Below, piece by piece: positions 20,024-59,362 of a DNA stretch of 64,000 bases; position 1 is the first letter of the stretch; every line of letters starts with the position of its first letter. The notes beneath the pieces are model-generated. The model was not told the DNA's origin, searched no databases, and was given only the letters and a program-made list of their open reading frames with translations. A program made the position numbers and the translations under genes. This DNA comes from Thermoanaerobaculia bacterium (lineage in GTDB: Bacteria > Acidobacteriota > Thermoanaerobaculia > Gp7-AA8): contig DASPMO010000039.1 of the NCBI GenBank assembly GCA_035627015.1, positions 11,470-75,469 of the forward strand, given 5' to 3'.

Positions 20024-20036
20024 GGCATTCCGAGTG

Positions 20037-20068: not shown

Positions 20069-20105
20069 ATTCACCTTACGGTTCAAGAAGAGCGCCGGCC
20101 GCACC

Positions 20106-20546
20106 CTACCGGTCCGGCCGTCCCATCAGGCACATCACCGTCTCGGTCCCGATCGCGCACACCGTTTCGGCGCCGTCCTTCGTCACCGTCACACGGAACT
20201 CGCAGACGGTGAGGGTGCGGCCGGAGCGCACCACCTGGCCGGTGGCGCGGAGGCGGTCGCCGTCGGCGGGAGCGACCATGTTGATCTTGTACTCGACGCT
20301 GAGGACTGAGCTGTCCGTGGGCATCATCGAGTAGCCGGCGTAGCCGGCCGCGCTGTCGGCGATGATGGCCACGACGCCTCCGTGAAAGTAGCCGTGCTGC
20401 TGCGTGAGCTCGGGGCGGAACGGGAGCTCGATCTCGACGAGGCCCGGCTCGACGCGCGTCATCGTCGCGCCGAGGTAGTCCATCACGGCCTGGCGCGCGA
20501 AGCTCTCGCGCACGCGGGCTTCGAAGCCGGGATCGCGGGGCGTCAT
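20106..20546 (-). CDS. PaaI-family hotdog thioesterase
   Basis: QQHGYFHGGVVAIIADSAAGYA, SVEYKINMVAPA.GDRLRATGQVVRSGRT; ATG overlaps FAAL stop. Confidence 0.92.
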   Translation of the reverse strand: MTPRDPGFEARVRESFARQAVMDYLGATMTRVEPGLVEIELPFRPELTQQHGYFHGGVVAIIADSAAGYAGYSMMPTDSSVLSVEYKINMVAPADGDRLRATGQVVRSGRTLTVCEFRVTVTKDGAETVCAIGTETVMCLMGRPDR

Positions 20547-25063: not shown

Positions 25064-25081
25064 GCGCGGACTCCTTTCCGG

Positions 25082-26305
25082 TCACGATGCGCGTGACACG
25101 ATCAGGCTCGAGTTGATGCCGCCGAAGCCGACGGCGTTGATGAGGACGTTGCGCAACGCGCGCGGACGTGCCTCGGAGGCGACGTCGAAGCCGTCGCACT
25201 CCGTCCGCGGCGTGCGCAGGTTCAGCACGGGAGAGACGGTCTGGTGCTGCAGCGCCGCGATCGCGGCGGCGAGATTGAGGGGGCCGCTGGCCCCGAAGGT
25301 GTGGCCGACGTGGCCCTTGATGGAGGTGAGCGTCGGCGCGTGGCCGTTGCCGCCGAACACGGTGCGCACGGCCTCGAGCTCGCACGCGTCGCCGCGCGGG
25401 ACTCCCGAGGCGTGGGAGTAGAGACAGTCGATGTCGTGCGGGTCCATGCGGGCGTCTCGGAGCGCGCCGGCCATCGACGAGACGATGCCCGCCACGGACT
25501 GCAGCGCGATCTGCTCGCCGCCGGTGGTGGTGGCGAAGCCGGTGAGCTCGCCGAGGATGGTGGCGCCGCGTGCCAGCGCGTGCTCCCGCTTCTCGAGCAC
25601 GAACGCCGCCGCCCCTTCCCCGACGATCATCCCTTCCGCGCCGGCATCGAACGGCCGCGGAGAGGGGGGCCCGTTGGTGGCCGTGCTGAGGACACGCAGC
25701 GCCTCGAAGCCCGAGAAGGCGATCGGCGTCACCACTCCCTCGGTGCCGCCGGCGACGGCCCAGGACAACATCCCCGCCCGGATGTGCGCCACGGCCACCC
25801 CGATGGCCTGCAGCCCGCTCGCGCAGGCGCCGGCCACCGTGTATTGCGGGCCGTGCAGACCGTACGTGAGCGCGGTCATGCTCGCGGCCATGTTCGGGAT
25901 CAGGGAGGGGATGAGGTACGGCGTGATCTTGCGCGGCCCGCGTGAGTCCTGGCGGACCACGCCCGCCTCCATGTTCGGCAGGCCTCCCATGCCGACGCCC
26001 ATGAACACGCCGCCGCCGTCGTGACCGGCGATGCCGCTCTGCTCGAGCGCACCGCCCGCGGCCGCGACGGCGTAGCGGACGAAGCGATCCATCCGCTTCA
26101 GCTCGTGCGCGTAGGGGCCGGTGGCCGCCGGCAGGGCGTCGTCGTCGATCTGCGCCGCGCGGCGGCAGGCAAAGCGCTCGCTCGGAAAGCGGGTCAGCGG
26201 CCCGATCCCCGAGACGCCGTTCAGGAGCTGCTCCCAGAACGCGCCGGGCGACGCGCCGAGAGGAGTGAGCAGACCGAGACCGGTGATGACGACGCGGCAG
26301 GACAC
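25082..26305 (-). CDS. Discrete beta-ketoacyl-ACP synthase (FabF-like)
   Basis: RVVITGLG, catalytic GACASG (Cys), SHASG (His), KGHVGH (His), GEGAAAFVLE, NAVGFGGINSS. Confidence 0.92.
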   Translation of the reverse strand: MSCRVVITGLGLLTPLGASPGAFWEQLLNGVSGIGPLTRFPSERFACRRAAQIDDDALPAATGPYAHELKRMDRFVRYAVAAAGGALEQSGIAGHDGGGVFMGVGMGGLPNMEAGVVRQDSRGPRKITPYLIPSLIPNMAASMTALTYGLHGPQYTVAGACASGLQAIGVAVAHIRAGMLSWAVAGGTEGVVTPIAFSGFEALRVLSTATNGPPSPRPFDAGAEGMIVGEGAAAFVLEKREHALARGATILGELTGFATTTGGEQIALQSVAGIVSSMAGALRDARMDPHDIDCLYSHASGVPRGDACELEAVRTVFGGNGHAPTLTSIKGHVGHTFGASGPLNLAAAIAALQHQTVSPVLNLRTPRTECDGFDVASEARPRALRNVLINAVGFGGINSSLIVSRAS

Positions 26306-26311
26306 GGAGCG

Positions 26312-26575
26312 TCAGGTCGTTTCTGCCACGCCGGAAGTGCGCGTGGCGACGTAATCCACGAGGTCCTGCATCGTCTCGATGTGCTCCATGACCGTCTCGT
26401 CGAACTCCACGCCCAGGCGGTCCTCGAGATAGAGCGTCATCTCGAACAGCTTGATGGAGTCGAGGCCCGGGATCGCCGTCGCCACGCGCGATTCGGGGCG
26501 AAGGTGCGACACGTCCTGTTCGAGGTACTCCCCGATATAGCGAACGACGTCCTGAAAGAGCGAGGCATGCTCCAT
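26312..26575 (-). CDS. Acyl carrier protein
   Basis: GLDSIKLFEMTLYLEDRLGVEFD...IETMQDLVDYV; AGGAGG RBS upstream of ATG 26575. Confidence 0.88.
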   Translation of the reverse strand: MEHASLFQDVVRYIGEYLEQDVSHLRPESRVATAIPGLDSIKLFEMTLYLEDRLGVEFDETVMEHIETMQDLVDYVATRTSGVAETT

Positions 26576-26811
26576 AGGGTCCTCCTGCGCCGGATTTTCC
26601 GAGATTAACTCCATACAACGTGCGGTCCGGACTTCCTGAAGTCAAGGGGGCGGGTGCGGGGCGTGCCGGGGCAAATGCCGCCGCCTCCATGAATTTCCAC
26701 AAGACCCCAACATCTGTCCGCGCGGTCGAGTGCACTTTGATCATCAAGTGCACTGGCTTACACCACGTGGTCGACACGGACCGATTCCACGACTCTCACA
26801 GGAGGTTTTCC

Positions 26812-33245: not shown

Positions 33246-34085
33246 ATGTGTCCTTACGTGCCGAGTTGGCCAACCGCCGGCGACGTTGCGCATTTCCACC
33301 AGCACGGCTGGGTCACGTCGCCCCCGATCGTGCCGGAAGACCTCCTGGACGAGGCTGCCGAGACAGTCGAGGCCTACTACCTCGGCGAGCGCGATCACCA
33401 TCTGCCGGTGCAGGGGTTTCTCGACTGGCATCCCGAGCACGGCGAAGGGCTGCGCCTCAACGACTACGTCTCCCTACAGTCCGACACCCTGCGCAGGCTG
33501 GTCTGCCTGCCGGAGATTGCACGGGCGGCGGCCATGCTGATCGGCGTGGAGCGCGTGCGCCTCTTCCACGATCAGCTCATCACCAAACCACCCGCCGCCG
33601 GCGTGGACACCCGGGTCGGCTGGCACACCGACAAGTCATACTGGAAGACCTGCTCGTCCGAGAAGATGCTGACCGCCTGGATCCCGTTCCAGGATTGCTC
33701 GGAGGAGGCCGGCCCGCTGGCCGTCGTCGACGGGAGCCACAAATGGCAGGACACGGACTGGATGTCGACGTTCGTCGTCCAGGATTTCGCCTCCATCGAG
33801 GAGCGGCTGGAGCGTCCCATCCGGCCGCGCCCGCTGCTGCTGAAACGGGGGCAGGTCAGCTTCCATCACGCCCGGACGATCCACGGCAGTTTCGCCAATC
33901 GCAGCAACGGCTTCCGCACCGCGCTGGCCGTGCATCTTCAGGATGAGGACAACGTCTATACGCGGCCCGAGGCGGTCGACGGACGCGTGCCCGTGCACAT
34001 CAACGATCTTCTTTGCCGGCGGCGACCGGACGGCAGTCCGGATTACAGCGACCCGGACATCTGCCCGACGCTCTGGCCCGTGTGA
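33246..34085 (+). CDS. PhyH-family Fe(II)/2OG dioxygenase (copy 1)
   Basis: LFHDQLITKPP, WHTD (HxD), LTAWIPFQD, GPL.VVDGSH, FHHARTIHGS..N. Confidence 0.9.
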   Translation: MCPYVPSWPTAGDVAHFHQHGWVTSPPIVPEDLLDEAAETVEAYYLGERDHHLPVQGFLDWHPEHGEGLRLNDYVSLQSDTLRRLVCLPEIARAAAMLIGVERVRLFHDQLITKPPAAGVDTRVGWHTDKSYWKTCSSEKMLTAWIPFQDCSEEAGPLAVVDGSHKWQDTDWMSTFVVQDFASIEERLERPIRPRPLLLKRGQVSFHHARTIHGSFANRSNGFRTALAVHLQDEDNVYTRPEAVDGRVPVHINDLLCRRRPDGSPDYSDPDICPTLWPV

Positions 34086-34093
34086 CCACGAAC

Positions 34094-37000
34094 ATGACCA
34101 CGATGGCCATCGCGCATCCGAATCGAGGGCTGCCCCTGTCACGGCAGCGGTCGGGCGTCTTCTCCCCGCGCCGCGAGCGCACAGCCATCCACATGACCGC
34201 GACGCCGCCGCAGCTCGCGGCGGCCGTGGCTGTGGTGCTCTTCCGCTATCACGGCCACGCCCCGGTCCCGGTCGGCCTCGGAACGTCCGCTCCCCAGCTG
34301 GTCGAGGTGGAGATCGATCCCTCCGCGACCATCGGCGCGCTGCGCGCGCGCATGGCCGGCGCCTTCGAAGCCTTGCGCGGAGCCGCGCCGGCGCAGGAAG
34401 GAAACCGCAATCCGGAATTCGATGTGAGCGTGCTCGCGTCGGAGCCCGCGGGAGACTGGCGCGAGGACGTGGTCCTCTACCCGCTCGAGGAGCGCGTGGA
34501 AGCGCTGTGGCGCGCGCGCCTGCTCGACGTGAAGATGGTCGAGCGCTTCCTGACGCACGTCCGCGCCGTGCTCGCGGCGGATGACGGGCAGCCGGCCGAC
34601 GGCATCGACATCGTTTCCGGCGACGAGAAGGAGTTCCTGCGACAGTTCGAAGTCGGACCGCCGGCCGAGGCGATGCCGCCCGTGCACGCCGCCTTCGTGG
34701 CGCAGGCGCGGCGCACGCCGGAGCAGCCGGCCCTGCAGATCGGCGCGGTCACGATCTCCTACGCGGAGATGGAGCGGCGGTCGGCGGTCATCGCCGGCGC
34801 CCTCACCTCGCGCGGGGTGGCCGCCGGCGAGGCGGTGGCGCTCTGCGTCTCGGCGGCCGAGGGGGTCACGGCGCTGGTGGGTATCCTTCGCGCGGGCGCC
34901 GCGGCCGTACCGCTCGACGGCACGCTCCCGCCGGCGCGTCTCCGGTCGCACGTCGAGCAGGCGAACGTGCAGTGGGCGGTCGTCGACGAGCGCCACCGCC
35001 CTCTCGTGCCGGTCGAGCAGGTGGTCACGCTCGACGCTCTCGACTGGAACGCCGAGGCCGGCCTCATCGACCCGCCGGTGACGGACGAGTCGCCCGCCTA
35101 CATTCTTTATACCTCCGGCTCGACCGGGACGCCGAAAGGTATCCGCATGCCGCACCGGGGGCTGAGCAACGTCACCAGCTGGCAGATGGCCCGCAGCGCG
35201 CCCGCGCCGCGCACGCTGCACCGCACCTCGCTCGCCTTCGACGTCTCGATGCAGGAGATCTTCTCCACGTTGTGCGCGGGCGGCTGTCTCGTGGTCGCCG
35301 ACGACGAGGTCCGCGGCGATCCTTCCCGGCTGCCCGATTTCATCGCCGAGCACCGCATCGAGCGTGCGTTCGTGCCGCCGGTGTCGCTGTACCAGATCGC
35401 GGCCGCGCTCGATGCGCGTCCGCAGCCGCTGCCGTCGCTGCGCGAGGTCTACGTCGCCGGCGAGGCGCTGAAGCTCGAGCCGGCGGTGGTGCGGATGTTC
35501 CGGAGCGTCGACGCGATCCTGGAGAACCACTACGGTCCGACCGAGACGCACGTCGCCACGACGTACCGCCTCGAAGAGTCGCCGCTGCGCTGGAGCACGC
35601 GCCCCCCGATCGGGCGTCCCGTTCCCGGCCTCGAGGTGCGCATCCTCGACGGACGCGCCAGGCGCGCCCCCCTCGGTATTGCCGGCGAGATCATCGTCCG
35701 CGGCCGACAGGTCGCGGACGGCTATCTCCTCGGCGTTCCGTTCATCGCGGAGGACGGCACGCCCGCCTACGCCACCGGCGACCTGGGACGCTGGACCGCC
35801 ACGGGCGATCTCGAGTTCCTCGGCCGCAAAGACCGCCAGGTGAAAGTGCGCGGGTATCGCATCGAGCCGGGCGAGATCGAGCTCGCGCTGCAGGCGCAGC
35901 CGGGCGTCCGCGCCGCCGTCGCCGCGGCGCTCGACGACGGCGGCTCGACGCGCCTCGTCGCCTGGATCGTGCCCGACACCATGTTCCCCGGCGTGGCCGC
36001 CATCCGCAAACGGCTGCTGGACGTCCTGCCCGAGTACATGGTCCCGGCGCTGAGCGGCTTCGCGGTCATCGATCGGTTGCCGCTGACGCGGACAGGGAAA
36101 GTCGATCTCTCCGCGCTCAAGCCGCCCGGACAGGGCGAGACCGATCCGGCCCTCCACTACGCTCCCTCGCGGAACGACGTGGAGGCGGCCGTCGCGGAGA
36201 TCTGGCGCCGCGAGCTGGGGCTCGAGCGCGTCGGCATTCACGACGACTTCGTGGAGATCGGCGGCCATTCGCTGGTCGCCATCCGCATCGTGTCGCAACT
36301 GAACGAGCGCTTCGGCGTCAACCTCCCCCTGCGCCTGCTGCTGCGCGGCGGAACCGTGGCCACGGTGGCCAGCCGTCTCGTCGACAACAGCGCGGCGCAA
36401 CCGGAGAACGGGGCGCTCGTGCGCTGCCCGCTGCCCGACGGCAAGATCGTCATCGCACCGTCCGCGGGCGAGGCGCAGTATCTCTGGCAGGACGTCTTCG
36501 CGCTCGACAGCTACGGCGCGCCGGTCGTGTACGACCGCGACGCGGTCGTCGTCGACGTCGGCGCGCACGTCGGCCTCTTCTCGCTGTACGCCCTCGCCGC
36601 CGCGCCGGAGGGACGCGTCGTGGCCATCGAGCCGGTGCCGGTGCTGGTCGAGGCGCTCAAGCGGAACACCGAAAGCCACGGCAGCCGCATCGCCTATTAC
36701 TCCACTGCCGTCGGGGACCACGACGCGAGCGCGTCGATGACGTACTACCCGAAGCTGTCGGGGATGAGCTCCCTGCGCGCCAGTCCGGCGGCCGACGCCT
36801 CGCTGCTGCGCCGCATCATGCACAATCTCCTGGAGCGGCGGCCCGAGGCCGATACGCTCCTCGGCGAGCTGGACGAGCTCGTCGCCGAGCGGCTCGAGGC
36901 GCAGACGTTCGAGTGCACCGTGCGCCGGCTGGAGAGCATCCTGGACGAGGCCGCGCCGGAGCGGATCGACGTCCTCAAGATCGACGTGCAGCGCTACGAA

Positions 37001-37189
37001 GAGCCGGTGCTCCACGGCGTGGGCAACGCCTGGGACCGCGTCCGGCAGGTGGTCGTGGAAGTCCACGACGAGGACGGCGCGTTCGATCGCATCGACGGAT
37101 TCCTGCGCCGGAAGGGCTTCTCGACGTCGGCCAAGGATCTGCCGATCCACGCCGGGACGCCCGTGCGCTTCCTGGTCGGAACCAAGTGA
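34094..37189 (+). CDS. NRPS-like protein: degenerate C fragment - A (Pro-like) - T - FkbM methyltransferase
   Basis: YTSGSTGTPKG, FDVSMQEI, HYGPTETHV (by-eye pocket DVQFYAHVAK), FVEIGGHSL, VDVGAHVGLFS...IEPVP, IDVLKIDVQ. Confidence 0.9.
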   Translation: MTTMAIAHPNRGLPLSRQRSGVFSPRRERTAIHMTATPPQLAAAVAVVLFRYHGHAPVPVGLGTSAPQLVEVEIDPSATIGALRARMAGAFEALRGAAPAQEGNRNPEFDVSVLASEPAGDWREDVVLYPLEERVEALWRARLLDVKMVERFLTHVRAVLAADDGQPADGIDIVSGDEKEFLRQFEVGPPAEAMPPVHAAFVAQARRTPEQPALQIGAVTISYAEMERRSAVIAGALTSRGVAAGEAVALCVSAAEGVTALVGILRAGAAAVPLDGTLPPARLRSHVEQANVQWAVVDERHRPLVPVEQVVTLDALDWNAEAGLIDPPVTDESPAYILYTSGSTGTPKGIRMPHRGLSNVTSWQMARSAPAPRTLHRTSLAFDVSMQEIFSTLCAGGCLVVADDEVRGDPSRLPDFIAEHRIERAFVPPVSLYQIAAALDARPQPLPSLREVYVAGEALKLEPAVVRMFRSVDAILENHYGPTETHVATTYRLEESPLRWSTRPPIGRPVPGLEVRILDGRARRAPLGIAGEIIVRGRQVADGYLLGVPFIAEDGTPAYATGDLGRWTATGDLEFLGRKDRQVKVRGYRIEPGEIELALQAQPGVRAAVAAALDDGGSTRLVAWIVPDTMFPGVAAIRKRLLDVLPEYMVPALSGFAVIDRLPLTRTGKVDLSALKPPGQGETDPALHYAPSRNDVEAAVAEIWRRELGLERVGIHDDFVEIGGHSLVAIRIVSQLNERFGVNLPLRLLLRGGTVATVASRLVDNSAAQPENGALVRCPLPDGKIVIAPSAGEAQYLWQDVFALDSYGAPVVYDRDAVVVDVGAHVGLFSLYALAAAPEGRVVAIEPVPVLVEALKRNTESHGSRIAYYSTAVGDHDASASMTYYPKLSGMSSLRASPAADASLLRRIMHNLLERRPEADTLLGELDELVAERLEAQTFECTVRRLESILDEAAPERIDVLKIDVQRYEEPVLHGVGNAWDRVRQVVVEVHDEDGAFDRIDGFLRRKGFSTSAKDLPIHAGTPVRFLVGTK

Positions 37190-38511
37190 ACACGAGCTCC
37201 GCCGCCGCCCTGGGCCGCCTGGCTGATTCGCTCCCGCGCTGCGACGTGATGAATCTCGGCTATGCGCTGCTGGTGGAAGGGCCGTTGACCGCCGCGGCCA
37301 TGCAGCGTGCCGTCAGCGAGGTCCTGGCCGCGGATCCACTGCTCGCCGGCCCGTGGCTGTGGCGTGACGGCGCCGCCGCACGCGAGGACTTTGCCTTCCT
37401 GGCCGCCCGGCATCTCGCGACGCCGCTCGATCCCGAGGCCCCGTTCAGCGCCGCGTTGTGGTCCGGCGGACCGGACAGCCACCTGTTCCTGCTGGCCATC
37501 CACCATCTCGTCGCCGACGGCGTGGTGCTCGACCGGCTGGCCGCCGACCTCACGCGGCGACTGCAGGGGAAAGAGCTGCCGCCGGTCGAGTTCGCACCGC
37601 AACGGGCGCTCTCCGCGCCCGCGCCGTATACGGCGCCGCGGCTGCCCCTCGCGCCGGCTCCCCCCAGCGTGCGGGCGAGCTGCCGCGCGACCACGCTTCC
37701 GGCCGAGCTGGCGGAGCAGTTCCGCGGCACGATGCGCGGCTGGCGCACCACCCCGTTCGCGGGGGCGATCGCCTGCGTCGTGGCCGCGGTCGCAGGATGG
37801 ACCGGCCAGACCGAAGTCGGCGTCACCATCCAGGTCGCCGGCCGCAACTCGAACGCCGCCCTGCGCGCACCGGGCCCGTGGTACGACCACGCCAACCTCA
37901 CCTTCCCCGTTACGCCGGGCGAGCCGTTGCGCGCGCTCCTGCTCGACGTCGGCAAACGGGTCGTGACGAGCCTCACCACGGAGGGCTTGTGGGCCGCCGC
38001 GCGCCACGAGGAGCCGTGTCCCGAGCTGCTCGTGGTCTACGACCGCTTTCCGCTGTCGAGCATGGCCATCCCCGGCTGCCGCGTCACGCCGGTGGCGGTG
38101 CAGCGGCAGCCGGAGCGGGCGGACGGTCCGCGCGAGTACCTCGTGGCCACGGAAGCGGACATCGTCGTGTTCTTCCGCGAACAGGCGGGGACGCTCGGCA
38201 TGTCGCTGTTCACCAAGACGGCGCGCGTTCCCGAGCAGACCGCGGCGCTGCTGTTCGATTCGATTCTCGACACGCTGCACGTGCTGAGCGCGGACGATCA
38301 GCAACCGGTCGAGCGCCTCGACTTCCCGCCCGACGGCGCGACCTCGCCGGCGCCGGTGGCCTGGCCCGAGCCTGCCTTGTGCGAGGCGCCGCTGGTGGAC
38401 GCGGTGTCGCCCGTGTTCCGCGTCCGCGACGACACGCTACGCGCATTCGCGCGCGATGCCGAACGAACACTGCACGAATGGGGGGTGCCGCCATGGCAGC
38501 GAGCGTCATGA
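37186..38511 (+). CDS. Stand-alone condensation-domain protein (GTG start overlapping upstream stop)
   Basis: MNLGYALLVEGPL, LLLAIHHLVADG (HHxxxDG), EVGVTIQVAGR. Confidence 0.78.
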   Translation: MNTSSAAALGRLADSLPRCDVMNLGYALLVEGPLTAAAMQRAVSEVLAADPLLAGPWLWRDGAAAREDFAFLAARHLATPLDPEAPFSAALWSGGPDSHLFLLAIHHLVADGVVLDRLAADLTRRLQGKELPPVEFAPQRALSAPAPYTAPRLPLAPAPPSVRASCRATTLPAELAEQFRGTMRGWRTTPFAGAIACVVAAVAGWTGQTEVGVTIQVAGRNSNAALRAPGPWYDHANLTFPVTPGEPLRALLLDVGKRVVTSLTTEGLWAAARHEEPCPELLVVYDRFPLSSMAIPGCRVTPVAVQRQPERADGPREYLVATEADIVVFFREQAGTLGMSLFTKTARVPEQTAALLFDSILDTLHVLSADDQQPVERLDFPPDGATSPAPVAWPEPALCEAPLVDAVSPVFRVRDDTLRAFARDAERTLHEWGVPPWQRAS

Positions 38512-39383
38512 GCGCCGGGGAGCGCGCGCTGCTGCCAACGCCGGAGCAGGTCGCGGAGTACGAGGCACACGGCTGGTGGATCTCCCCGCCGTGCATCGGC
38601 GAGGAGGCGCTGGAGGAGCTGCGGTTCGGCATCGAGCGCTATTACTCCGGCGAGCGCGATTGGCGCCTGCCCATCGTTTCCGCCTCGGACTGGACGCCCG
38701 CCGACGGCGACGTCGTGCGGCAGAACGACTTCGCCTCGCTGCAACTGGAGGAGTTCCGCGCCTTTCTGCTGCGCCAGCCCGTCATCGCGGCCATGGCCGC
38801 GCGGCTCGCGCGCAGCCCGTCGGTCCGCCTGTTCCACGACCAGATCGTCTACAAACCCGCCGGCCGTTCGCTGCAGGAGACGGGCGTCGGCTGGCACACG
38901 GACCGTTCGTACTGGAGGACCTGCACGTCGGCGCGCATGCTCACCGCCTGGATTCCGCTGGCCGATGTCGACGAGCGCTCCGGCACGATGACGGTCATCG
39001 ACGGGAGCCATCTCTGGCCGGACGCCGAGAAGCTGCGCCGCTTCCACGAGCGCGACGTCGACGCCGTGCAGCGCGAGATCACCCCCTCCGGTGCCTGGAT
39101 CGAGGTACCGTACCGCATGCGCGCCGGACAGGTCGCGTTCCACCACTGCAGGACGATCCACGGCAGCCGGCAGAACATGTCGGACGTGCCGCGCATCGCC
39201 TGGGCGGTCCATTTCCAGGACGAAGACAACCGGTGGCAGCCCGCGACCAACCCCGACGGCACGATGACGCCGCACATGAATGACCTGCTGTGCCGGAAGA
39301 CCCCGGACGGCACACCCGACTACCGCGACCCCGACGTCTGTCCCGAATTGTGGCGAGAGGAGCCGTATGAACCGTTCATCTGA
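38508..39383 (+). CDS. PhyH-family Fe(II)/2OG dioxygenase (copy 2)
   Basis: LFHDQIVYKP, WHTDRSYW, LTAWIPLAD, IDGSH, FHHCRTIHGS; ATGA overlap. Confidence 0.9.
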   Translation: MSAGERALLPTPEQVAEYEAHGWWISPPCIGEEALEELRFGIERYYSGERDWRLPIVSASDWTPADGDVVRQNDFASLQLEEFRAFLLRQPVIAAMAARLARSPSVRLFHDQIVYKPAGRSLQETGVGWHTDRSYWRTCTSARMLTAWIPLADVDERSGTMTVIDGSHLWPDAEKLRRFHERDVDAVQREITPSGAWIEVPYRMRAGQVAFHHCRTIHGSRQNMSDVPRIAWAVHFQDEDNRWQPATNPDGTMTPHMNDLLCRKTPDGTPDYRDPDVCPELWREEPYEPFI

Positions 39384-39594
39384 GGCTGCAGTGGCAGCCC
39401 TCTACACAGCCGTCGCCGAGATCCTGCAGATCGACTCCGCGCGGCCGCAGGACAACTTCATCGAGCTCGGAGGGAACTCGCTGCTCGCGGTCATTCTCGC
39501 CAACCGCATGGAAGACGAGTTCGGGACGCGGCTCGATGTGATGGACATCTTCAATCTCGAGCTCGGCCAGCTCGAGCCTCTGCTCGGTCCATGA
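39367..39594 (+). CDS. Stand-alone peptidyl carrier protein
   Basis: AEILQIDSARPQDNFIELGGNSLLAVILANRMEDEFG...DIF. Confidence 0.88.
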   Translation: MNRSSEAAVAALYTAVAEILQIDSARPQDNFIELGGNSLLAVILANRMEDEFGTRLDVMDIFNLELGQLEPLLGP

Positions 39595-40363: not shown

Positions 40364-42220
40364 ATGATGAACATTCAGCTCGTGGACATTCAGGTGTACG
40401 AACGTCTGACGCCGCTCGCCTCGGGACTGATGGCGGCGGCGGTGCTCGGCGATTCCGCGCGCGCGGCCTCGTGCCGCATCGCCCTGCGGACGTGGAACGT
40501 CGCCGCGAGCGCGGAGACGATCGCCGCCGCGCTGCTCGCGGAGCCCTGCGATCTCGTCGGCTTCAGCACGTACGTCTGGAACGCCGGCCTGGTCCGGCGC
40601 GTGGCCGCGCTGCTCGCCCGCGAGCGGCCGCAGCTGCCGATCCTGCTCGGCGGGCCGCACGTCGTGCACGGCGCGGAGCGCTGGCGCGGCGTCGCCCCGA
40701 ACCTGCTCATCGCCGACGGCGAGGGAGAGCCGATCCTCGTCGACCTCGCCGAGCGCTTCCTCGGCGGCCGGCCGCTGGCCGAGAGTGTGGGCGTGTCCGG
40801 CTTCTGGGAAGGCGCGGCGCTGCCGCCGTCGGGGCACATGCCGGTCGCGGACCTCGAGCAGATCCCCTCGCCGTTCCTCATGGGACTCTTTCCTCCGGGC
40901 GTCTACACGCAGGCCATCCTCGAGACGAACCGCGGCTGCCCCTTCGCCTGCAGCTTCTGTTTCTGGGGCCTCGGGTCCAAACGCGTGCGCAGGTTCTCCG
41001 ACGACCGTACCCGCGCCGAGCTTGAATGGATCTTCCGCGAGAAGATCCTCTCCGTCTTCGTGGCGGACGCGAACTTCGGCATGTACCCCCGCGACATCGA
41101 CATCGCCAACGCGCTGGCCGGCAACCGCCGGCAGCACGGGACGCCGCTGGTCGTGTCGTTCAACACCATGAAGAACCGGCCGGAGACGATGTCCCGCATC
41201 AGCCGGATCGTCGGGGAGGCGGGGCTGGTGGCCACGCAGTCGATGGCCATCCAGTCGATGGATGAAGTCACGCTGCGCGAGAGCGGCCGCGGCACGATCC
41301 GCACCTCCGCCTACACGGCCGCGCTGGACGAGCTCAATCGCGACGGGTTCACGACCTACGTCGAGTTGATCTGGCCCTTGCCGGGAGAGACGGTCCAGTC
41401 GTTCGCGGCGGGGATCGACTCGCTCTGTGCCATCGGCGCGCAGAGCTTCGTCGTCTACCCGTTGCTCGCGCTGCCCAACACCCGGATCACCGAGCAGCGC
41501 GAGGCTCTCGGCCTGACCATCACCCCCAGCGCCGACCAGGGCGCCGGCGACTACATGTACGTCACGGCCACGCGCGAGGTCTCCGCGGAGGAGTATCGCG
41601 AAGGGTTATGGCTGACCCTGGCCGTGAACCTCCTGTACAACACGCGCGTGCTGGCCGGCACGTTCGACGTGCTCCGGCAGCGCGGCATCCGCCACATCGA
41701 CGTGCTCGCGCCGTTCGCGCAATGGGCGAAGGAGCAGGACCTGCCGCTGTTCGCGCGCCACGCCAGCGCGTCCGCCAGCGTCGAGCACGCGTCGTGGGCG
41801 TACTGGGGCTCGATCGCGTTCGAGGCACTGCACGCGGAGCGCGAGCGGTTCGTGGCGATCGTCGAAGAGTTCTGCCGGCAGCAGCCGTGGTGGGACGAAG
41901 AGACGCGCGCCAGCATCGAAGTGGACCGCCTGCTGCTCCCCTACCTCTTCTCCAATACGCGGCTCGCGCCGTGGCACGGCAGCGACATCTCGGTCCAGCC
42001 GGAACAGCGGCGTCTCCACGCGCGCGTTTCCGACCGCGCGCGGAAGCTGCTGCACGCCCGCTGGCACGACCTTCCCGAGACCATCGAGCTGAATCCGTGG
42101 AACGGCCAGATGCCCCATTTTGCGAGTCAGCCGGTCAGCGCCGCGCACGATTACGCGTACGGCCAACTGCAACGCATGGCGCACTTCATTCCGAGACTGG
42201 TGGGCGCGCCCGCACCTTGA
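40364..42220 (+). CDS. Class B (cobalamin-dependent) radical SAM methyltransferase
   Basis: DLVGFSTYVWN, LGGPHV, DGEGE, IPSPFL, ETNRGCPFACSFCFWG, DANFG, ELIWPLPGET. Confidence 0.92.
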   Translation: MMNIQLVDIQVYERLTPLASGLMAAAVLGDSARAASCRIALRTWNVAASAETIAAALLAEPCDLVGFSTYVWNAGLVRRVAALLARERPQLPILLGGPHVVHGAERWRGVAPNLLIADGEGEPILVDLAERFLGGRPLAESVGVSGFWEGAALPPSGHMPVADLEQIPSPFLMGLFPPGVYTQAILETNRGCPFACSFCFWGLGSKRVRRFSDDRTRAELEWIFREKILSVFVADANFGMYPRDIDIANALAGNRRQHGTPLVVSFNTMKNRPETMSRISRIVGEAGLVATQSMAIQSMDEVTLRESGRGTIRTSAYTAALDELNRDGFTTYVELIWPLPGETVQSFAAGIDSLCAIGAQSFVVYPLLALPNTRITEQREALGLTITPSADQGAGDYMYVTATREVSAEEYREGLWLTLAVNLLYNTRVLAGTFDVLRQRGIRHIDVLAPFAQWAKEQDLPLFARHASASASVEHASWAYWGSIAFEALHAERERFVAIVEEFCRQQPWWDEETRASIEVDRLLLPYLFSNTRLAPWHGSDISVQPEQRRLHARVSDRARKLLHARWHDLPETIELNPWNGQMPHFASQPVSAAHDYAYGQLQRMAHFIPRLVGAPAP

Positions 42221-42232
42221 AGTCGCTCCGTT

Positions 42233-43603
42233 TTGATGGCAGTATTCCTTCCTTCGAGGACACGATTGACCGCCCTGAGTACGCCAGCGCGAGTTCCCGA
42301 TAGCGGACGGGCGGCTGAAGAGCCGTTTCCACTGCGCTGGAGCGCGACGCAGACACGGTTGCTGCGCGAGCGCGCGGAAGGATCCGGGCCGGCGCCCCTC
42401 GTGACCGCGATCGAGCTCGACGGACCGGTCGATGCCGCGCGTCTCGACCAGGCTTGGCAGGAGCTCCAGTGGCGGCACCCGTTCCTCCGCGTGCGTCTCG
42501 GCCCCGACGGCCCGTTCGCAGCGCCGGAAGTGCGTCCGCTGCTGCGCGCGAACATTCCGGGGAGCAGCCCGGGCTTCCGCACGGACGCGGCGCAAGTGCT
42601 CGCGGCGGCGGCGCGGCCCCGCGACCTGGCCACGGAAGGTCCGGCGGACGCGGCGTGGATCCGCACCGGCCCCGAGGCGGGACTGCTGATCTGCAGCGTC
42701 GACCATCTCGCCACCGATGGCTGGTCGTTCGGCCTCATGGCGCGGCAGTGGGGCGAGCTCTATCGCACGCCGGGCGCGGGCGCCGTCGTGGACCCGAGCA
42801 GCGTCATCGCCCGATACGACGAGCCTGAGCGCGTTCGCGCCCACGGCATCGCCGTCCGGAACCTTGCCGAGGAGCTCGCGGGCGCACAGCCGTTTCCGCT
42901 GCCTCCATCGCAGAGCGGATGGGCGCTCCTGCACGTCGACCTGCCGCTCGACATCGCCGGCGGTCTCCGCGCCCGCGCCACCCGCGACCGCTCGACGCCG
43001 TTCGCTCTCGCGCTGGCCGCCCTCGGCCGCGCGCTGGCGGCCGAGCATGGGGTGACCGACCTGGTCGTCTCCACGCATGTCGCCAACCGCTCCGTCCCGC
43101 AGAGCGAGCAGGTCGTCTGCGCGCTCTACAACACCGTCCCTCTGCGCATCTCCGCCAGGAGCGGCGACGATCTCGAAGGATGGGTTGCCTCGGCGAAGCA
43201 GGCCTCGCTGCGCGCACTGCAGCGGCAGTCGCTGCCGTTCGCCACGGCGCGGCAGGTGCTGGCCGGGACGCTCCCCTCCGACGCGTTCCTCCGCGTCATG
43301 ATCAACTTCGATCAGCACCCGTTCCTCGGGCTCTCTCTCCCCGGCGTCGAGATCCACGAATCGGCGGCATGGAGCCCGCAGCGGCTCGGGACGGGCCTGA
43401 ACGCCCCCTGGTATTCCACTTCCGACCGGCCGTGGCCGGCCGGCATCACCGTATCGTTCCGCGAGACCTGGGATTGCCTGCAACTCTACATTCATTACGG
43501 AGCGGAGCTGGGCGATCGCGCTGCATTGATGCTGCTGGGCCGGGTGACCGAAGGCCTGGCACTGCTTACAGACTCCCGACAGGAGGAAAACGGCCATGGC
43601 TGA
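42233..43603 (+). CDS. Stand-alone condensation-domain protein (variant DHxxxDG)
   Basis: PLRWSATQ, RHPFLR, CSVDHLATDGWSF, STPFALALAA, STHVANR...LYNTVPLR, QSLPF. Confidence 0.8.
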   Translation: MMAVFLPSRTRLTALSTPARVPDSGRAAEEPFPLRWSATQTRLLRERAEGSGPAPLVTAIELDGPVDAARLDQAWQELQWRHPFLRVRLGPDGPFAAPEVRPLLRANIPGSSPGFRTDAAQVLAAAARPRDLATEGPADAAWIRTGPEAGLLICSVDHLATDGWSFGLMARQWGELYRTPGAGAVVDPSSVIARYDEPERVRAHGIAVRNLAEELAGAQPFPLPPSQSGWALLHVDLPLDIAGGLRARATRDRSTPFALALAALGRALAAEHGVTDLVVSTHVANRSVPQSEQVVCALYNTVPLRISARSGDDLEGWVASAKQASLRALQRQSLPFATARQVLAGTLPSDAFLRVMINFDQHPFLGLSLPGVEIHESAAWSPQRLGTGLNAPWYSTSDRPWPAGITVSFRETWDCLQLYIHYGAELGDRAALMLLGRVTEGLALLTDSRQEENGHG

Positions 43604-44576
43604 CTCGAGAGCTCAAATCATCGCCCAGGCACTGATCCAGATCGCGCAGACCCTGACCCCCGAAGGAGGACAGGACGAGGCCAAGGAGCGCGGTGGTCGC
43701 GGCGGCGGTGCGGCCGCGGCCGCGACGCGCGATCCGGAGAGCGTGGCCTCCCTGATCCGCGCACTCTGCCCCGCCACGTCCACGGCCACGCGCCCGACCG
43801 ACGTCGCGGAGCTGATCCGCGCGCTCTGCCCGGTGGGCGACACCCGCGCCAATCCGACCGCCACCGCGCGCCTGATTCAGGCGCTCTCGCCGGCGGTCGA
43901 GACGGGAGGACGCGAGCGCATGCAGCAGCTCATCGCCGCGCTCTGCCCGATCGAGCCGGGCTCGAACGTCTCGCGATTCGCCGAACAGTTCGCAGCCGGC
44001 GACACCGCGGCGATGGCGGAGGCCGTCCAGAGCGGCGCCGAGGCTGATGCCACCGTTTCCGCCGCAACGCTCACCCCGCAGCAGCGCCTGGCGGCCGACG
44101 TCTTCCGCGTACTCTCGCCGGTCGACCAGCAGCCGCGGACCGACGTCAAAACCGCGGTCGACTTCCTGCGTGCGCTCTGCCCGGCGGACCGTCCGCCGGA
44201 CGAAGTGGCGGGCCTCATCGCCGCGCTCTCGCCGGCCGCCGACAAGACCGCCGGCTCTCCCGACGAGGCGGTCGCGTTCATTCGCGCGCTCTGCCCCGCC
44301 GGGGACGTACCGGCCACCGACGTCGCGCAGATTGTCCGCGCACTCTCCCCCGCCGCCGATCTGGAGGCGAGGCGCACCGACAACGTCGCGCAGCTCGTGC
44401 GGGCGCTCTGTCCCGCGGCACCGACCGAGTGGGGCGGGCTGGTTCGCGCGCTCTCGCCGGCGCACGATCCGGCGACGCGGCCAACCGACGTTGCGGAGCT
44501 CATTCGCCAGCTCTCTCCCGCGATCGGGCCGGTGGAAGTCATCCGCACGCTGTCGCCTGCGGGTCCGGGGCAATGA
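43596..44576 (+). CDS. Unknown protein with 13 tandem [LFIV][IVLF]xxL[C/S]P repeats
   Basis: GGAGG RBS, start overlaps upstream stop; motif LIRALCP/LIAALSP recurs 13 times with variable P/A/T/D-rich linkers; repeat visible at DNA level (gcgctctgcccg / gcgctctcgccg). Confidence 0.85.
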   Translation: MADSRAQIIAQALIQIAQTLTPEGGQDEAKERGGRGGGAAAAATRDPESVASLIRALCPATSTATRPTDVAELIRALCPVGDTRANPTATARLIQALSPAVETGGRERMQQLIAALCPIEPGSNVSRFAEQFAAGDTAAMAEAVQSGAEADATVSAATLTPQQRLAADVFRVLSPVDQQPRTDVKTAVDFLRALCPADRPPDEVAGLIAALSPAADKTAGSPDEAVAFIRALCPAGDVPATDVAQIVRALSPAADLEARRTDNVAQLVRALCPAAPTEWGGLVRALSPAHDPATRPTDVAELIRQLSPAIGPVEVIRTLSPAGPGQ

Positions 44577-44597: not shown

Positions 44598-46286
44598 ATG
44601 CCGAAAGTCAGTGACTACGTAGCCGATTTCCTGGCCATCAACGGAATTCATCTCGCCTTCGAGCTGTCGGGCGGGATGATTTCCCATTTGCTCGACTCGT
44701 TCGCGGCGCATCCGGACATCCGCGTGATCTCCATGCACCACGAGCAGTCGGCGTCGTTTGCCGCCGAGGCGGTGGGACGGCTGACCGGCCGCCCCGCCGT
44801 CGCCCTCGGGACGTCCGGACCGGGCGCGCTGAACCTCGTCAGCGGCATCGCCAGCTGCTACTACGATTCCGTCCCCGCCCTCTTCATCACCGGCGACGTG
44901 CAGACCTACATGGAAGCGGGACAGAAGCCGCTGCGCCAGTTCGGGCTGCAGGAATGCCCATTCCCCGCCGTCGCCGCGCCGATCGCCAAATCCGCGGTCT
45001 CGGTCAAGCGTGCGGCCGACGTCCCCGCCGCCTTCGAGCAGGCGCTCCTCACGGCCGTCAGCGGCCGTCCCGGCCCGGTGGTCATCGAGCTTCCCTTCGA
45101 CGTGCAGGGACAACCGCTGAATGCGCAGGCGGCGGCGGTGGCGCTGCCTCCCCCGCAGCCTCCCGCCGATGACGCGGTGACGGTGGCCAACGAGATCCTC
45201 GCCTCCGCGCAGCGTCCGCTGATCCTCGCCGGTGGCGGCGTGCGCTCTCCCGCGGCCAGCGACGCGCTGCGGCGCTTCGCCGAGAAGACAGGAGTGCCGC
45301 TGGCGACGTCCATTGCCGCGCTGGACGTCGTGCCGGCCGGTCACCCGCTGCGCGTCGGACTGGTGGGGATGTACGGCACGCGCGCGGGAAACCTGGTCAT
45401 GGCCGAAAGCGACGCCATCCTGGTCGTCGGCAGCCGCCTCGACGCGGGACTGATCGGGGCCGACACGAGCGCGTGGGAGCGTCACAAAACGATCGTGCGC
45501 GTGGACTGCGACGCGGGCGAGCTGTCGGCCCGCCTGCGCAATGCGAAGCAGTTCCACGCCGACGCCGGAGCGTTCCTCGCCGCGGCGCTCGCGAGCGCGC
45601 CGAACGGGGTCCACGCCGAGTGGCGCGCGCGCGTCCAGCAGTTGAAAAGCGAGCACCCCGACACCGCCGAGCATGCGACCGGAGCAGACATCAATCCGAA
45701 CCTGTTCATGCATCAGTTGTCCGCGGGGTCCGGCGACGCCGTCGCCTACGTCGTGGATGCCGGGCAACACACCTGGTGGTCCGCGCAGTCGCTGCAGCTC
45801 ACCGGGTCGCAGCGGTACCTCGGCGCCACGGGCTTGTGGGCCATGGGATCGTCGCTCCCGGCCGCGATCGGCGTCGCCCTGCACACGGGCCGCCCCGTCG
45901 TCGCCATCGCGGGCGACGCCGGCATCCAGCTCAACCTCCAGGAGCTCCACGCCCTCATCCGCTACCAGCTGCCGGTCAAGATCGTGGTGATCAACAACCA
46001 CTGCCACGGCATGGTGCGCCAGTTCCAGGACGAGTTCTTCGACCGCCGGCGCCCGTCGACCGTCTGGGGCTATAGCCCTCCCGACTTCACCGCCGTCGCC
46101 GCCGCCTACGGAATCCGCTCCGCGGCCGTCGACCGCCAGGACGACGTCCCGGCCGCGGTCGCGCGGATGTGGGCCGATCCCGCCGCCCCCTTCCTGCTGA
46201 ACGCGACGATTCCGCTCGACATCAACGTCTCCCCCTACGTCCCCCTCGGGCGCCCACTCAGCGGGATGGTTCCGCCGCGCCCCTGA
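44598..46286 (+). CDS. ThDP-dependent enzyme, acetolactate synthase large-subunit-like
   Basis: MHHEQSASFAAEA, TSGPGALN, GRPGPVVIELP, PLILAGGG, GDAG...VINN ThDP motif, GMVRQFQ. Confidence 0.92.
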   Translation: MPKVSDYVADFLAINGIHLAFELSGGMISHLLDSFAAHPDIRVISMHHEQSASFAAEAVGRLTGRPAVALGTSGPGALNLVSGIASCYYDSVPALFITGDVQTYMEAGQKPLRQFGLQECPFPAVAAPIAKSAVSVKRAADVPAAFEQALLTAVSGRPGPVVIELPFDVQGQPLNAQAAAVALPPPQPPADDAVTVANEILASAQRPLILAGGGVRSPAASDALRRFAEKTGVPLATSIAALDVVPAGHPLRVGLVGMYGTRAGNLVMAESDAILVVGSRLDAGLIGADTSAWERHKTIVRVDCDAGELSARLRNAKQFHADAGAFLAAALASAPNGVHAEWRARVQQLKSEHPDTAEHATGADINPNLFMHQLSAGSGDAVAYVVDAGQHTWWSAQSLQLTGSQRYLGATGLWAMGSSLPAAIGVALHTGRPVVAIAGDAGIQLNLQELHALIRYQLPVKIVVINNHCHGMVRQFQDEFFDRRRPSTVWGYSPPDFTAVAAAYGIRSAAVDRQDDVPAAVARMWADPAAPFLLNATIPLDINVSPYVPLGRPLSGMVPPRP

Positions 46287-46351: not shown

Positions 46352-47068
46352 GTGGCAAACAGCAAGCTTGCGGCACCCCAGCTCGTCCTGCACAGCCGGA
46401 TGATCTATACCAGTTGGATCCCCGAGGATCCGGACGCCTGCGCGCGCCTCCTTCCGCCCGCCCTGCGGCCGGCGGCCAACCGGGCCGTCTACATGAATCA
46501 GTACGTAGTGGACCGGGCGGAGCAGACCACCGGCTTCGGGGCGTACTCGCTCACCTACCTGGGACTCGACCTGGCGGACCTGTTCGCGCCCGACGGGGTG
46601 ACCCCGGCGCGCTTCTTCACGCACTACTTCAACTCGTCGGAGACCGTGCGGGAGTACGTGACGGAGCGCGGCGTCCCGGCGTCCCCCGGCTCGACCGTGC
46701 TGGAGGTGGAAGGCGGAATCGCCACGGCGACCACCAGCGTGGACGGCACCCCCATCATCCGCACCCGGGCCCGGGTGGGCGAGACGGCCGACCTCGTGCT
46801 GGCCGGCCACCTCCGCTACGTGACCCGGGTCGGCAACCGGCTGATCGCCGGGAACTACCCCTACATCGGCGAGCTGGCAGGCACGTTCGAGGTGCAGTCC
46901 ATCGAGTTCCTCGCCCCCGACCACCCGGTATACGCCCTCCGCCCGGCCAGCCCGCTCCAGGTGATCGCCGGCTCGTCCTTCTACGCCCCGCGCGACTCGT
47001 TCGTGTACCCCGGCGGCGAGGAGGACCTCGGTCCGGCAGAGGGCGGTGGCCAGGGGCACCGGCCGTAG
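46352..47068 (+). CDS. Acetoacetate decarboxylase (ADC) superfamily-like protein (GTG start inferred)
   Basis: Size, D..ACARLLPPALRP N-terminus, FGAYS..YLG, beta-rich pattern; canonical Schiff-base Lys not confirmed. Confidence 0.55.
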   Translation: MANSKLAAPQLVLHSRMIYTSWIPEDPDACARLLPPALRPAANRAVYMNQYVVDRAEQTTGFGAYSLTYLGLDLADLFAPDGVTPARFFTHYFNSSETVREYVTERGVPASPGSTVLEVEGGIATATTSVDGTPIIRTRARVGETADLVLAGHLRYVTRVGNRLIAGNYPYIGELAGTFEVQSIEFLAPDHPVYALRPASPLQVIAGSSFYAPRDSFVYPGGEEDLGPAEGGGQGHRP

Positions 47069-48086: not shown

Positions 48087-49418
48087 TCACACGACTACCA
48101 GCCTGCTGGGCGTGTCGGAAAGCATATTTCTAACCAAGTCCAGAATCGGCTTGGAGGCGGGTCCAGCGGTTAGAATTTCCAGCCTCTCGGAAAACCGGGC
48201 AAAGAGCACCTTCTGCTGCACCTCGAACTTGGAAGGGTCGACGAGAAAGACCTTTCGTTCAGCGGCTTCCAGCAGAGCACGTTTCGCCGGCACTTCGTGG
48301 TCGTGCGTGATGGCGAAGCCTTCACGTTCATACAGCCCATTTGTACCGAGAAACGAAATATCGAGCCGCCCGGGGGGAGGAGAGATCACCGATACATCCG
48401 ATTCTCTCCAGGGAATCACCGTCAAGGACCTGGGTCTGCACCAGCCGCCCATCAGAATGACTCGGCAACGAACGCTGCTGCCGCCGGCTTCGAGTTCGCT
48501 CAAGGTCTCCAGAAGGTGGTACGCGACCGGAACCGAGTTGGTGAAGATCTCCAGATCATTGATGGATCCGGCACGGATCTCGTCGCTGAGATACGCCGCA
48601 AGCGCGAGCGTCGTCGAGCCGCCGTCGATCCCGATGCGATGTCCGGATCGTACAAGCCGTGCCGCCGCTTTGGCGATCGCCCGTTTTTCACGCGCGAAGA
48701 GCGTCCGCTTGTAGAAATTGCTCTCCTTTGCGAGATACACATGCTCGGCATCGAAGTAGATGCCGCCGAGCACGTGACTGCTCCGCAGCCGCTGCAGCAG
48801 ATCGAGCGTGGCCGCAGCATCGATCCAGGCGAGCTCCGGATACTGCCGCAGTTCCGTTGCGAGTTGCTCGATCGTGAGCGGGTTCTCGAGCCTGTGCGAG
48901 TGAACGACAGTCCGCACGTGTTCGGCCATCGAGACGGCGAGTGCCGTCGCGGCATCGAACGCGGCAAACCGCGATCGCGATGTAGGGCTGCGAAAGCCGT
49001 CGCGAGCGAGCAACCCGAAGAGCTCCATCGTCAGTTCGTCAACGAAGCCTTTGACCGCTGTGTCATGGAACTTGTAGCAGGAAAGATACTTACGGTCCGG
49101 CAACATCTCGTCGATGAGTTTTTTGCCCGCTGGCTCGACGACGATCGGAAGGAGATAGGGACGCGCGAGCGTCTTTTCCTGCTGCAGCGCCCAGGAGACC
49201 TCCTTGCGCACCCAATCCGACTTGGCCGCGCTGCGGTCGACGATCAGCATGACGAGATCGCAGCCGCTCTTGATTGCTTCCTCAAGCCGCGCTTCGACTG
49301 AGTCGCCGATGCGCAGTTCGTGGTCGTCGAGCCGTAACTCGACGAACGGCGGCAGCCTTTGCCGAATCTGCTCAATGAAGGACTTCCGTCCTCCACTATG
49401 GCTGACGAAGATCCTCAT
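48087..49418 (-). CDS. TIR domain - winged helix-like - DeoR C-terminal sugar-phosphate sensor fusion
   Basis: N-term IFVSHS...SDWVRKEV (TIR with catalytic-position Glu); C-term EKRAIAKAAARLV..GHRIGIDGGSTT, IFTNS, LMGG, DISFLGTNG, KRALLEAAERKVFLVDPSKF (DeoRC). Confidence 0.88.
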   Translation of the reverse strand: MRIFVSHSGGRKSFIEQIRQRLPPFVELRLDDHELRIGDSVEARLEEAIKSGCDLVMLIVDRSAAKSDWVRKEVSWALQQEKTLARPYLLPIVVEPAGKKLIDEMLPDRKYLSCYKFHDTAVKGFVDELTMELFGLLARDGFRSPTSRSRFAAFDAATALAVSMAEHVRTVVHSHRLENPLTIEQLATELRQYPELAWIDAAATLDLLQRLRSSHVLGGIYFDAEHVYLAKESNFYKRTLFAREKRAIAKAAARLVRSGHRIGIDGGSTTLALAAYLSDEIRAGSINDLEIFTNSVPVAYHLLETLSELEAGGSSVRCRVILMGGWCRPRSLTVIPWRESDVSVISPPPGRLDISFLGTNGLYEREGFAITHDHEVPAKRALLEAAERKVFLVDPSKFEVQQKVLFARFSERLEILTAGPASKPILDLVRNMLSDTPSRLVVV

Positions 49419-59353: not shown

Positions 59354-59362
59354 TGTATTCCG

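Follow-up and report, generated by a model that had tools for sequence, protein, structure and literature searches.

The subject of this analysis is a gene for a repeat protein (RP) on the forward strand of a 64,000-nucleotide stretch of Thermoanaerobaculia DNA (contig DASPMO010000039.1), referred to below as the window. The RP gene (43596..44576) starts with ATG, encodes 326 amino acids with 13 repeat units and is part of a cassette of the nonribosomal peptide synthetase (NRPS) type, where it lies between the genes for a free-standing condensation (C) enzyme (42266..43603, forward strand) and an ALS-like thiamine-diphosphate (TPP) enzyme (44598..46286, forward strand). The start of RP and the stop of the upstream C gene overlap by 8 nt, and a Shine-Dalgarno (SD) sequence, AGGAGG (43581..43586, forward strand), can be read directly within the 3' end of the C gene, 9 nt before the RP start codon. 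The C enzyme (445 amino acids) carries the active-site motif DHLATDG, in which the catalytic His is retained. Its nearest solved relatives are the C domains of Txo2/Txo1, AmbB and TycC, at E-values of 1e-14 or weaker.

The window has a G+C content of about 70%, and long spurious open reading frames (ORFs) are therefore found in all frames. The frame at 43596-44576 has a codon-position G+C of 0.75/0.58/0.85 (third-position value, GC3, 0.85), a profile typical for a genuine gene. Two pairs of near-identical strain variants of RP orthologues differ by 4 and 8 nt, and all 12 of these 12 differences are synonymous. Among the orthologues the ratio of nonsynonymous to synonymous substitution rates (dN/dS) is about 0.3-0.4 overall, with values of 0.17-0.25 in the helix cores and 0.46-0.73 in the linkers, and the N-terminus MA[DE]S can be aligned across all of them. 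At the DNA level the repeat units are only 60-75% identical, which shows that the duplications are old and rules out a recent expansion or an assembly artefact; Tandem Repeats Finder did not detect an array in the gene. In a comparison with the two closest loci, RP evolves fastest among the cassette genes, a behavior that is common for non-catalytic partner proteins. Taken together, these observations establish that the RP gene is real and that purifying selection acts on it.

The 13 units follow the pattern φφRAL[C/S]P and occupy residues 49-321. A sequence-only reading of this DNA had listed 13 decapeptide repeats in the 326-residue ORF, and every one of them was recovered, together with the reported 6 Cys and 7 Ser and their alternation from R2 to R11. 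The residue before Pro reads CCSCSCSCSCSSS from R1 to R13. The composition of the protein predicts only about 0.16 L-[CS]-P motifs, compared with the 13 observed, and if 6 Cys and 7 Ser are placed in random order, an alternating run of at least 10 arises in 15 of 1716 arrangements (0.9%). All 6 Cys of the window RP are located within L-C-P. An alignment of 91 units from seven orthologues yields the consensus [AP]-[ET]-[DE]-V-A-x-L-I-R-A-L-[S/C]-P-A, in which Pro(+1) is the most constant residue (90/91), followed by Leu(-1) (85/91), Arg(-3) (66/91) and Ala(-2) (61/91). The hydrophobic face of the helix, as seen on a helical wheel, consists of positions -8, -5, -4 and -1 and is flanked by two Ala (-7 and -2) and by the C/S residue. 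Conservation covers seven of the eight helix positions and the L-x-P element; variation is seen at the most exposed position (-6) and in the linkers.

The protein can be divided into five segments, all encoded on the forward strand. An N-terminal amphipathic helix, residues 1-20 (43596..43655), with the conserved pattern MAxSxxHxIAQALLQLAE, is followed by a variable Gly/Ala/Arg-rich linker, residues 21-46 (43656..43733), that is predicted to be disordered and shows indels of up to 41 residues among orthologues. A similar helix opens the most divergent homologue (see below), and the N-terminal helix is a possible docking element. Repeat block I, R1-R4, spans residues 47-118 (43734..43949), with a unit spacing of 20/20/19 in eight of nine orthologues. 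The two blocks are separated by a variable insert, residues 119-160 (43950..44075), which is predicted with low confidence and causes the R4-R5 length to range from 54 to 73 among orthologues. Repeat block II, R5-R13, covers residues 161-321 (44076..44558), with a spacing of 21/17-18/21/18-19/21/15-17/20/13-14. The linker lengths of block II are constant within 2 residues in all orthologues (43-63% identity), in contrast to the two other segments with their indels of up to 41 residues. The C-terminus of RP is not conserved among orthologues, and one member of the family (L016) has 14 units.

The identity of the residue before Pro was compared over nine orthologues. The 117 positions hold 68 Ser, 40 Cys, 4 Trp, 3 Ala and 2 Tyr, such that Ser or Cys is found at 108, Tyr at 2 more and Trp or Ala at the other 7. 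There is no invariant Cys column in the family, and the number of Cys per main-family protein varies from 1 to 6, with a Thermoanaerobaculia orthologue that reads Y S S S W A S Y S C S S S having a single one. An alternating run of 10 is seen solely in the window RP and its closest relative; in the other orthologues the run is 4-8. Hence the strict alternation pointed out in the sequence-only reading holds for these two proteins and fails for the family. The residue counts, the lack of an invariant Cys and the single-Cys orthologue do not support the weight which that reading had placed on alternating nucleophiles. When the C/S residue is excluded from the comparison, R6/R8 and R7/R9/R11 still cluster as two unit types, and the unit spacing alternates as well (21/17-18). 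The best explanation for the alternation is that a two-unit module of about 39 residues, with one Cys-preferring and one Ser-ending unit, was duplicated in tandem; it does not look like a selected alternation of nucleophiles.

RP constitutes a previously undescribed and extremely rare sequence family. A search of 5.8 billion proteins yielded five homologues with 43-63% identity, and a profile search of 1.84 billion cluster representatives returned the RP family itself and two weak HEAT-like STAND proteins, but nothing else. A few further loci came from scanning genome and metagenome contigs and from walks that started at C-enzyme homologues. In public data this amounts to about 10 distinct RP loci, all from soil metagenomes or metagenome-assembled genomes (MAGs) of Acidobacteriota; the named sources are Acidobacteriota and Thermoanaerobaculia MAGs, and the window RP itself is present in two metagenome assemblies. 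A Pfam scan of the window RP and all six aligned members gave no match above the cut-off, the best relevant profile being HEAT_GCN1 with 17.3 bits against a cut-off of 27 in two of the six members, and no TPR or ARM match was seen in any of these sequences. The NCBIfam search of RP had no match above threshold either, and neither database revealed a PP-binding (PF00550) or other carrier signature in RP. The best PDB sequence match is the designed helical repeat protein DHR14 (5cwh/5h78), with a non-significant E-value of 0.006-0.012. The earlier statement that no known family fits is thereby confirmed for Pfam, NCBIfam and PDB sequence searches. A full-text literature search on the cassette gene combination, on Cys-Pro repeat scaffolds and on related TPP enzymes found nothing relevant.

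The genomic context of RP is conserved. The cassette has the order PhyH, A-T-FkbM, second C-like, PhyH, stand-alone peptidyl carrier protein (PCP), (P450), (LCM-type methyltransferase, on the opposite strand), B12 radical SAM, C, RP and ALS-like TPP. Common to all RP loci is the core set of PhyH, A-T-FkbM, the second C-like protein (C'), PhyH, PCP, C and RP, with the B12 radical SAM and TPP genes usually present. The C gene is located directly 5' of RP in every locus found, with either the 8-nt overlap or a gap of 10-12 nt and a strong SD sequence. The TPP gene is located 3' of RP in most loci, but not in L007, where a phosphopantetheinyl transferase (PPTase) gene takes its place, or in L019. 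In L017 the interval from PCP to C contains neither the radical SAM gene nor the LCM gene. The contigs L017 (JBAVBF010000154) and L007 (JBAVBF010000803) belong to the same Thermoanaerobaculia MAG, in which RP, the single-Cys orthologue, is kept in L007; in this one genome the B12 radical SAM, LCM methyltransferase and TPP genes are absent from their usual places. With the TPP and radical SAM associations being looser, that of C with RP is the tightest linkage in the cassette. The coupling to a stand-alone C domain and the operon context described earlier are thus general features, as every homologue was found in the same cassette.

The structure of RP was predicted with AlphaFold2 on a six-sequence alignment. 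Each repeat unit forms one 11-residue helix whose last residue is the Leu before [C/S]-Pro, which agrees with the helix plus (C/S)-Pro anatomy proposed from the sequence. A further helix is predicted for residues 2-20, whereas the segments 17-43 and 119-157 are of low confidence and predicted to be disordered. The model of the whole protein has a mean predicted local distance difference test score (pLDDT) of 58 and a predicted template modelling score (pTM) of 0.45, and block II alone reaches 64 and 0.60, respectively. In a Foldseek comparison of both models with the PDB, the top matches were exclusively alpha-solenoids, namely designed repeats, TPR proteins, PPR/THA8 and kinesin light chain. 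The models are consistent with a TPR/HEAT-like stack, without proving one.

The most plausible reading of these data, favoured here tentatively and with a little less than an even chance of being right, is that RP is a new helical-repeat adaptor that is made together with the free-standing C enzyme and serves it, with a structural role instead of being a chemically modified substrate. In this reading each unit is an amphipathic helix of two to three turns that ends with a small residue, Ser or Cys, before Pro, which acts as a helix stop. In block II the units pair into the modules of about 39 residues, made up of a unit that mostly ends in Cys-Pro, a short linker, a unit that ends in Ser-Pro and a long linker, and tandem duplication of this module would have produced the Cys/Ser alternation. 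The helices may be stacked as a TPR/HEAT-like solenoid, with Cys and Ser forming two ladders at the helix ends. Judging from the gene arrangement, RP is probably co-translated with the C enzyme and would most likely be its stoichiometric partner. As a non-enzymatic platform it may hold the trans-acting parts of the cassette, that is, the C enzyme, the stand-alone PCP and, where present, the TPP enzyme. If this is true, RP would represent a new sequence family of helical-repeat proteins that is dedicated to the free-standing C enzyme of a trans-acting NRPS cassette from uncultured Acidobacteriota, and it would help to study how stand-alone NRPS components come together. It would also serve as a marker gene for a rare uncharacterised pathway with two hydroxylases, an O-methyltransferase, a B12 C-methyltransferase and an ALS-like carboligase.

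Several observations weigh against an adaptor of this kind. The alignment behind the AlphaFold2 models contains six sequences, none of the residues reaches a pLDDT of at least 90, so that the confidence stays moderate, and none of the Foldseek matches to the PDB is significant (E-value at least 0.036, TM at most 0.43). Binding of the C enzyme by RP is putative. A structural role furthermore accounts only loosely for the occurrence of Cys in at least seven of nine orthologues at R1, R2, R8 and R10 and for the invariant Ser at R3, R7 and R9 in all nine, and all 41 of the 41 Cys in the family lie within L-C-P, followed by A, V, I or P. Further points come from L014, the most distant cassette, whose C enzyme is 43% identical to that of the window. 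Its slot between the C and TPP genes (L014:11296-12780) encodes a 494-residue Ala/Leu/Pro-rich protein that is a divergent homologue of RP according to hhalign (97% probability, E-value 3e-11), while a word-indexed protein search with it gave no match. In this protein the motif recurs with a dominant period of 9 residues (CPADVVRALCP), and 18 of its 18 Cys lie within L-C-P. What is conserved family-wide is thus the mini-helix with [C/S]-Pro and not a fixed helix-linker unit. Overall the L014 protein contains about 30 motif sites at a spacing of 9-14 residues, whereas the main family has 13-21. Near identity of its internal blocks, about 52 and about 65 residues in length, suggests a recent internal duplication. 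The adaptor does not account for the restriction of Cys to the motif, for the invariance of three Ser or for the variant with the 9-residue period. Since Cys is kept in the L014 protein and the motif is the conserved element, motif-centred models retain some probability: RP as a sticker-spacer scaffold, as an acyl acceptor or as a thiol ligand.

The adaptor reading has its closest structural analogy in the TPR, HEAT and PPR alpha-solenoids, which share with RP the tandem short amphipathic helices, Ala at packing positions, Pro at helix ends and a two-helix module of about 39 residues. RP differs in that both helices of its module end in L-[S/C]-P, that it is confined to one NRPS-type cassette and that no profile matches at the cut-off; to our knowledge, a module with both helices ending in this way is not found in any named repeat family. 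DHR14 resembles RP in its periodic helix-loop pattern (…ELVNEIVKQLAEVAKEATD…) with about 20 residues per helix unit, but it is an artificial protein and the match reflects periodicity and not descent. The Asn/Cys/Ser ladder of leucine-rich repeats (LRR) provides a comparable case of one solenoid position at which Cys, Ser and other small residues can replace each other for structural reasons, although the LRR is a strand-turn-helix unit with an LxxLxLxxN/C motif, whereas the units of RP are all-helical and the residue precedes Pro. A functional analogy exists with the MbtH-like proteins (PF03621), which are non-enzymatic and encoded in an NRPS cluster beside the enzyme that they presumably serve. 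These are, however, globular partners of A domains of about 70 residues without similarity to RP, which is linked to a free-standing C enzyme.

Among the alternatives, the one that survives best, while still unlikely, holds that RP is a largely disordered multivalent sticker-spacer scaffold, in which φφRAL[C/S]PA mini-helices bind an oligomeric partner, such as the ALS-like TPP enzyme or the C enzyme, and thereby cluster the pathway enzymes. Enzymes of the ALS family are usually dimers or tetramers. The different spacing of the conserved motif in the main family and in the L014 protein would fit this model, as would the fast-evolving linkers, their low pLDDT with two long segments predicted to be disordered, and the variable number of units, from the 14 of L016 to the about 30 sites of L014. 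However, the constancy of the block II linkers within 2 residues speaks against a disordered chain, the pTM of block II suggests a defined topology, and the TPP gene does not adjoin RP in L007 or L019. CsoS2, EPYC1 and encapsulation peptides cluster enzymes for carboxysomes, pyrenoids and microcompartments, and they share with RP the arrays of short amphipathic helices, the fast-evolving linkers and a copy number and spacing that vary between lineages. On the other hand, the window genes scanned include no shell, Rubisco or compartment genes, the linker lengths of the main family are fixed, and no sequence similarity was found. Genes for shell proteins (BMC-H or BMC-P) were not detected among the about 40 window proteins in the Pfam scan or in the gene tables of related loci. 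Hence, of the earlier idea of an encapsulation-peptide-like scaffold, the general notion of a multivalent scaffold stands, but its link to a microcompartment does not, as no shell gene occurs among the window genes scanned.

It is improbable that RP is a multi-site acyl acceptor or carrier, to which the C enzyme would move the PCP-bound hydroxylated and methylated aminoacyl group, yielding a protein-bound ester or thioester on the repeat Ser or Cys and, in effect, an NRPS-to-protein hybrid. The invariable position of RP 3' of a C gene with a retained catalytic His argues for such a role, and so do the nucleophile at nearly all motif positions (Ser or Cys at 108 of 117, Tyr at 2 more), the three invariant Ser and the confinement of every Cys to the motif. 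Against this stand the 7 positions with Trp or Ala, the lack of an invariant Cys, the absence of a PP-binding or other carrier signature and a conservation that is centred on the hydrophobic face and not on the surroundings of the nucleophile; moreover, we know of no precedent for the acylation of a protein side chain by a C domain. For this second of the earlier hypotheses, the positive evidence consists of the adjacency to the C gene, and the Ser conserved at R3, R7 and R9 leave it some probability. Should RP prove to be either a multi-site acyl acceptor or a condensate-forming scaffold, this would add a new principle to the assembly of natural products. Quite improbable, too, is a multi-site covalent platform, on which the motif Ser or Cys (Tyr in one lineage) would receive the tailored aminoacyl group of the PCP through the action of the C enzyme, and the building blocks would be held, tailored further by the B12 radical SAM and TPP enzymes or joined while bound as ester or thioester to a ribosomal protein. 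Such a platform would be a carrier without phosphopantetheine, a principle linking NRPS and protein chemistry.

A thiol-based function is very improbable. RP would then act as a ligand or sponge, either with Cys-Pro elements like those of heme-regulatory motifs or by binding cobalamin, a metal or an electrophilic product, in cofactor supply to the B12 radical SAM enzyme, in sensing or in self-protection. Heme-regulatory motifs also present multiple Cys-Pro, each followed by a hydrophobic residue, and six Cys-Pro are found in the window RP; however, the Cys of RP are not conserved and half of the units are Ser-Pro. The confinement of Cys to L-C-P followed by A, V, I or P (6/6 in the window RP, 41/41 in the family and 18/18 in L014) favours a thiol ligand, as does the single Cys of the only orthologue from a cassette in which the B12 radical SAM and TPP genes are absent from the usual places. 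Yet this correlation between gene loss and Cys loss comes from one genome, no Cys is invariant with counts as low as 1 in the main family, and the Ser-Pro units, which are unable to ligate heme or metal, are the better-conserved half. Least credible of all, and considered highly unlikely, is the multicore RiPP-like precursor (RiPP, a peptide synthesized ribosomally and modified post-translationally) that the sequence-only reading had placed first, with repeats modified by the radical SAM enzyme and dioxygenases and then excised: repeated units are indeed present, and RiPP tailoring is known for both B12 radical SAM methyltransferases and Fe/2OG hydroxylases, but the units within one protein have diverged (VFRVLSP, LIAALSP, VIRTLSP) and have just the helix pattern and L-x-P in common, scores between units are far below those within units across orthologues, the linkers and the C-terminus are variable, conserved cleavage sites beside the units do not appear, neither a protease nor a recognition protein belongs to the shared gene set (a peptidase is seen in L003 only), RP is kept in the MAG that lacks the radical SAM gene between PCP and C, and the two PhyH genes adjoin the A-T and PCP genes, as expected for carrier-tethered substrates. 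The residual probability belongs to something not considered.

A number of known motif classes were compared with RP and rejected. RP is not a PP-binding carrier, as it has no PF00550 match and its repeat Ser is positioned at a helix C-terminus before Pro and not in the (D/H/N)S(L/I) context at the start of helix II. The formylglycine site of sulfatases, [C/S]-x-[P/A]-x-R, at which radical SAM maturases convert Cys or Ser, does not fit, since RP reads L-[C/S]-P-A-x with Pro directly after C/S, and the radical SAM enzyme is of the B12-binding and not of the SPASM type. A lipobox was rejected on the sequence, position -1 in RP being Leu, and PPTase tags were rejected for the RP motif in the same manner. 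The chemistry of C-terminal scaffold peptides (pearlin-like) was rejected as well, given the non-conserved C-terminus.

The remaining cassette genes are all encoded on the forward strand. The upstream half (33246..39594) comprises a PhyH hydroxylase (33246-34085), an A-T-FkbM methyltransferase (34013-37189), the second C-like protein with the motif HHLVADG (37186-38511), a second PhyH hydroxylase (38508-39383) and the stand-alone PCP (39280-39594), which has a PP-binding score of 49.6 bits and the motif GGNSL. The second C-like protein has the canonical HHLVADG despite a weak Pfam score (35 bits), and the better-scoring C enzyme adjacent to RP has DHLATDG. Both PhyH proteins carry GWHTD (H-x-D), the iron ligands of the hydroxylase type, and were rejected as carrier-dependent halogenases, which would have H-x-A/G. 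The radical SAM enzyme (40364..42220) is B12-binding and nearest to the KedN5-like C-methyltransferase subfamily, below the cut-off, and the TPP enzyme (562 amino acids) falls below every NCBIfam equivalog cut-off. Judged by family membership alone, the cassette appears to make a building block from a carrier-tethered amino acid through hydroxylation, O-methylation and C-methylation, followed by condensation and a ThDP-dependent step. The weakest C homologue, with 28% identity (P0021), was rejected as an analogous locus, since it is part of an ordinary multimodular NRPS without a repeat protein and is uninformative.

Some further observations concern the surroundings of the TPP gene. In L003 and L004 the TPP enzyme is just 39-40% identical to that of the window, compared with 59-72% for the C and radical SAM enzymes, and it may be a replaced or fast-diverging paralogue. 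A 238-residue protein encoded 3' of the TPP gene in the window (46352-47068, forward strand) has a faint acetoacetate-decarboxylase-like Pfam match (E-value 0.0096) and no counterpart in related loci. Just past the TPP gene, small DUF1843 proteins adjoin a radical SAM/SPASM gene in L003:9122-11191, L004:12744-14423, L005 and L006, an arrangement that looks like a RiPP-type precursor/maturase pair and is absent from the window.

The cassette, about 13 kb in length, is located inside a larger biosynthetic gene cluster (BGC) with a three-module NRPS, ketosynthase (KS)/acyl carrier protein (ACP) genes and further radical SAM genes. A second sub-cluster in the window (12446-26641, reverse strand) encodes an A-domain and esterase fusion, a PLP enzyme (PALP), a B12 radical SAM enzyme, a B3_4-domain protein, a 4HBT thioesterase, two radical SAM enzymes, a KS and an ACP. 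Much of this content is found 3' of the TPP gene on the forward strand in L001 and L002, which shows that the halves of the BGC have been rearranged between genomes. Just outside the BGC, and adjoining a HAD hydrolase, the window encodes a 443-residue fusion of TIR_2 with a DeoR C-terminal sensor (48087-49418, reverse strand), which is unusual for a TIR protein. Further downstream, a 918-residue STAND NTPase with DUF4062 and NACHT (59354-62110, forward strand) is a possible defence or signalling gene.

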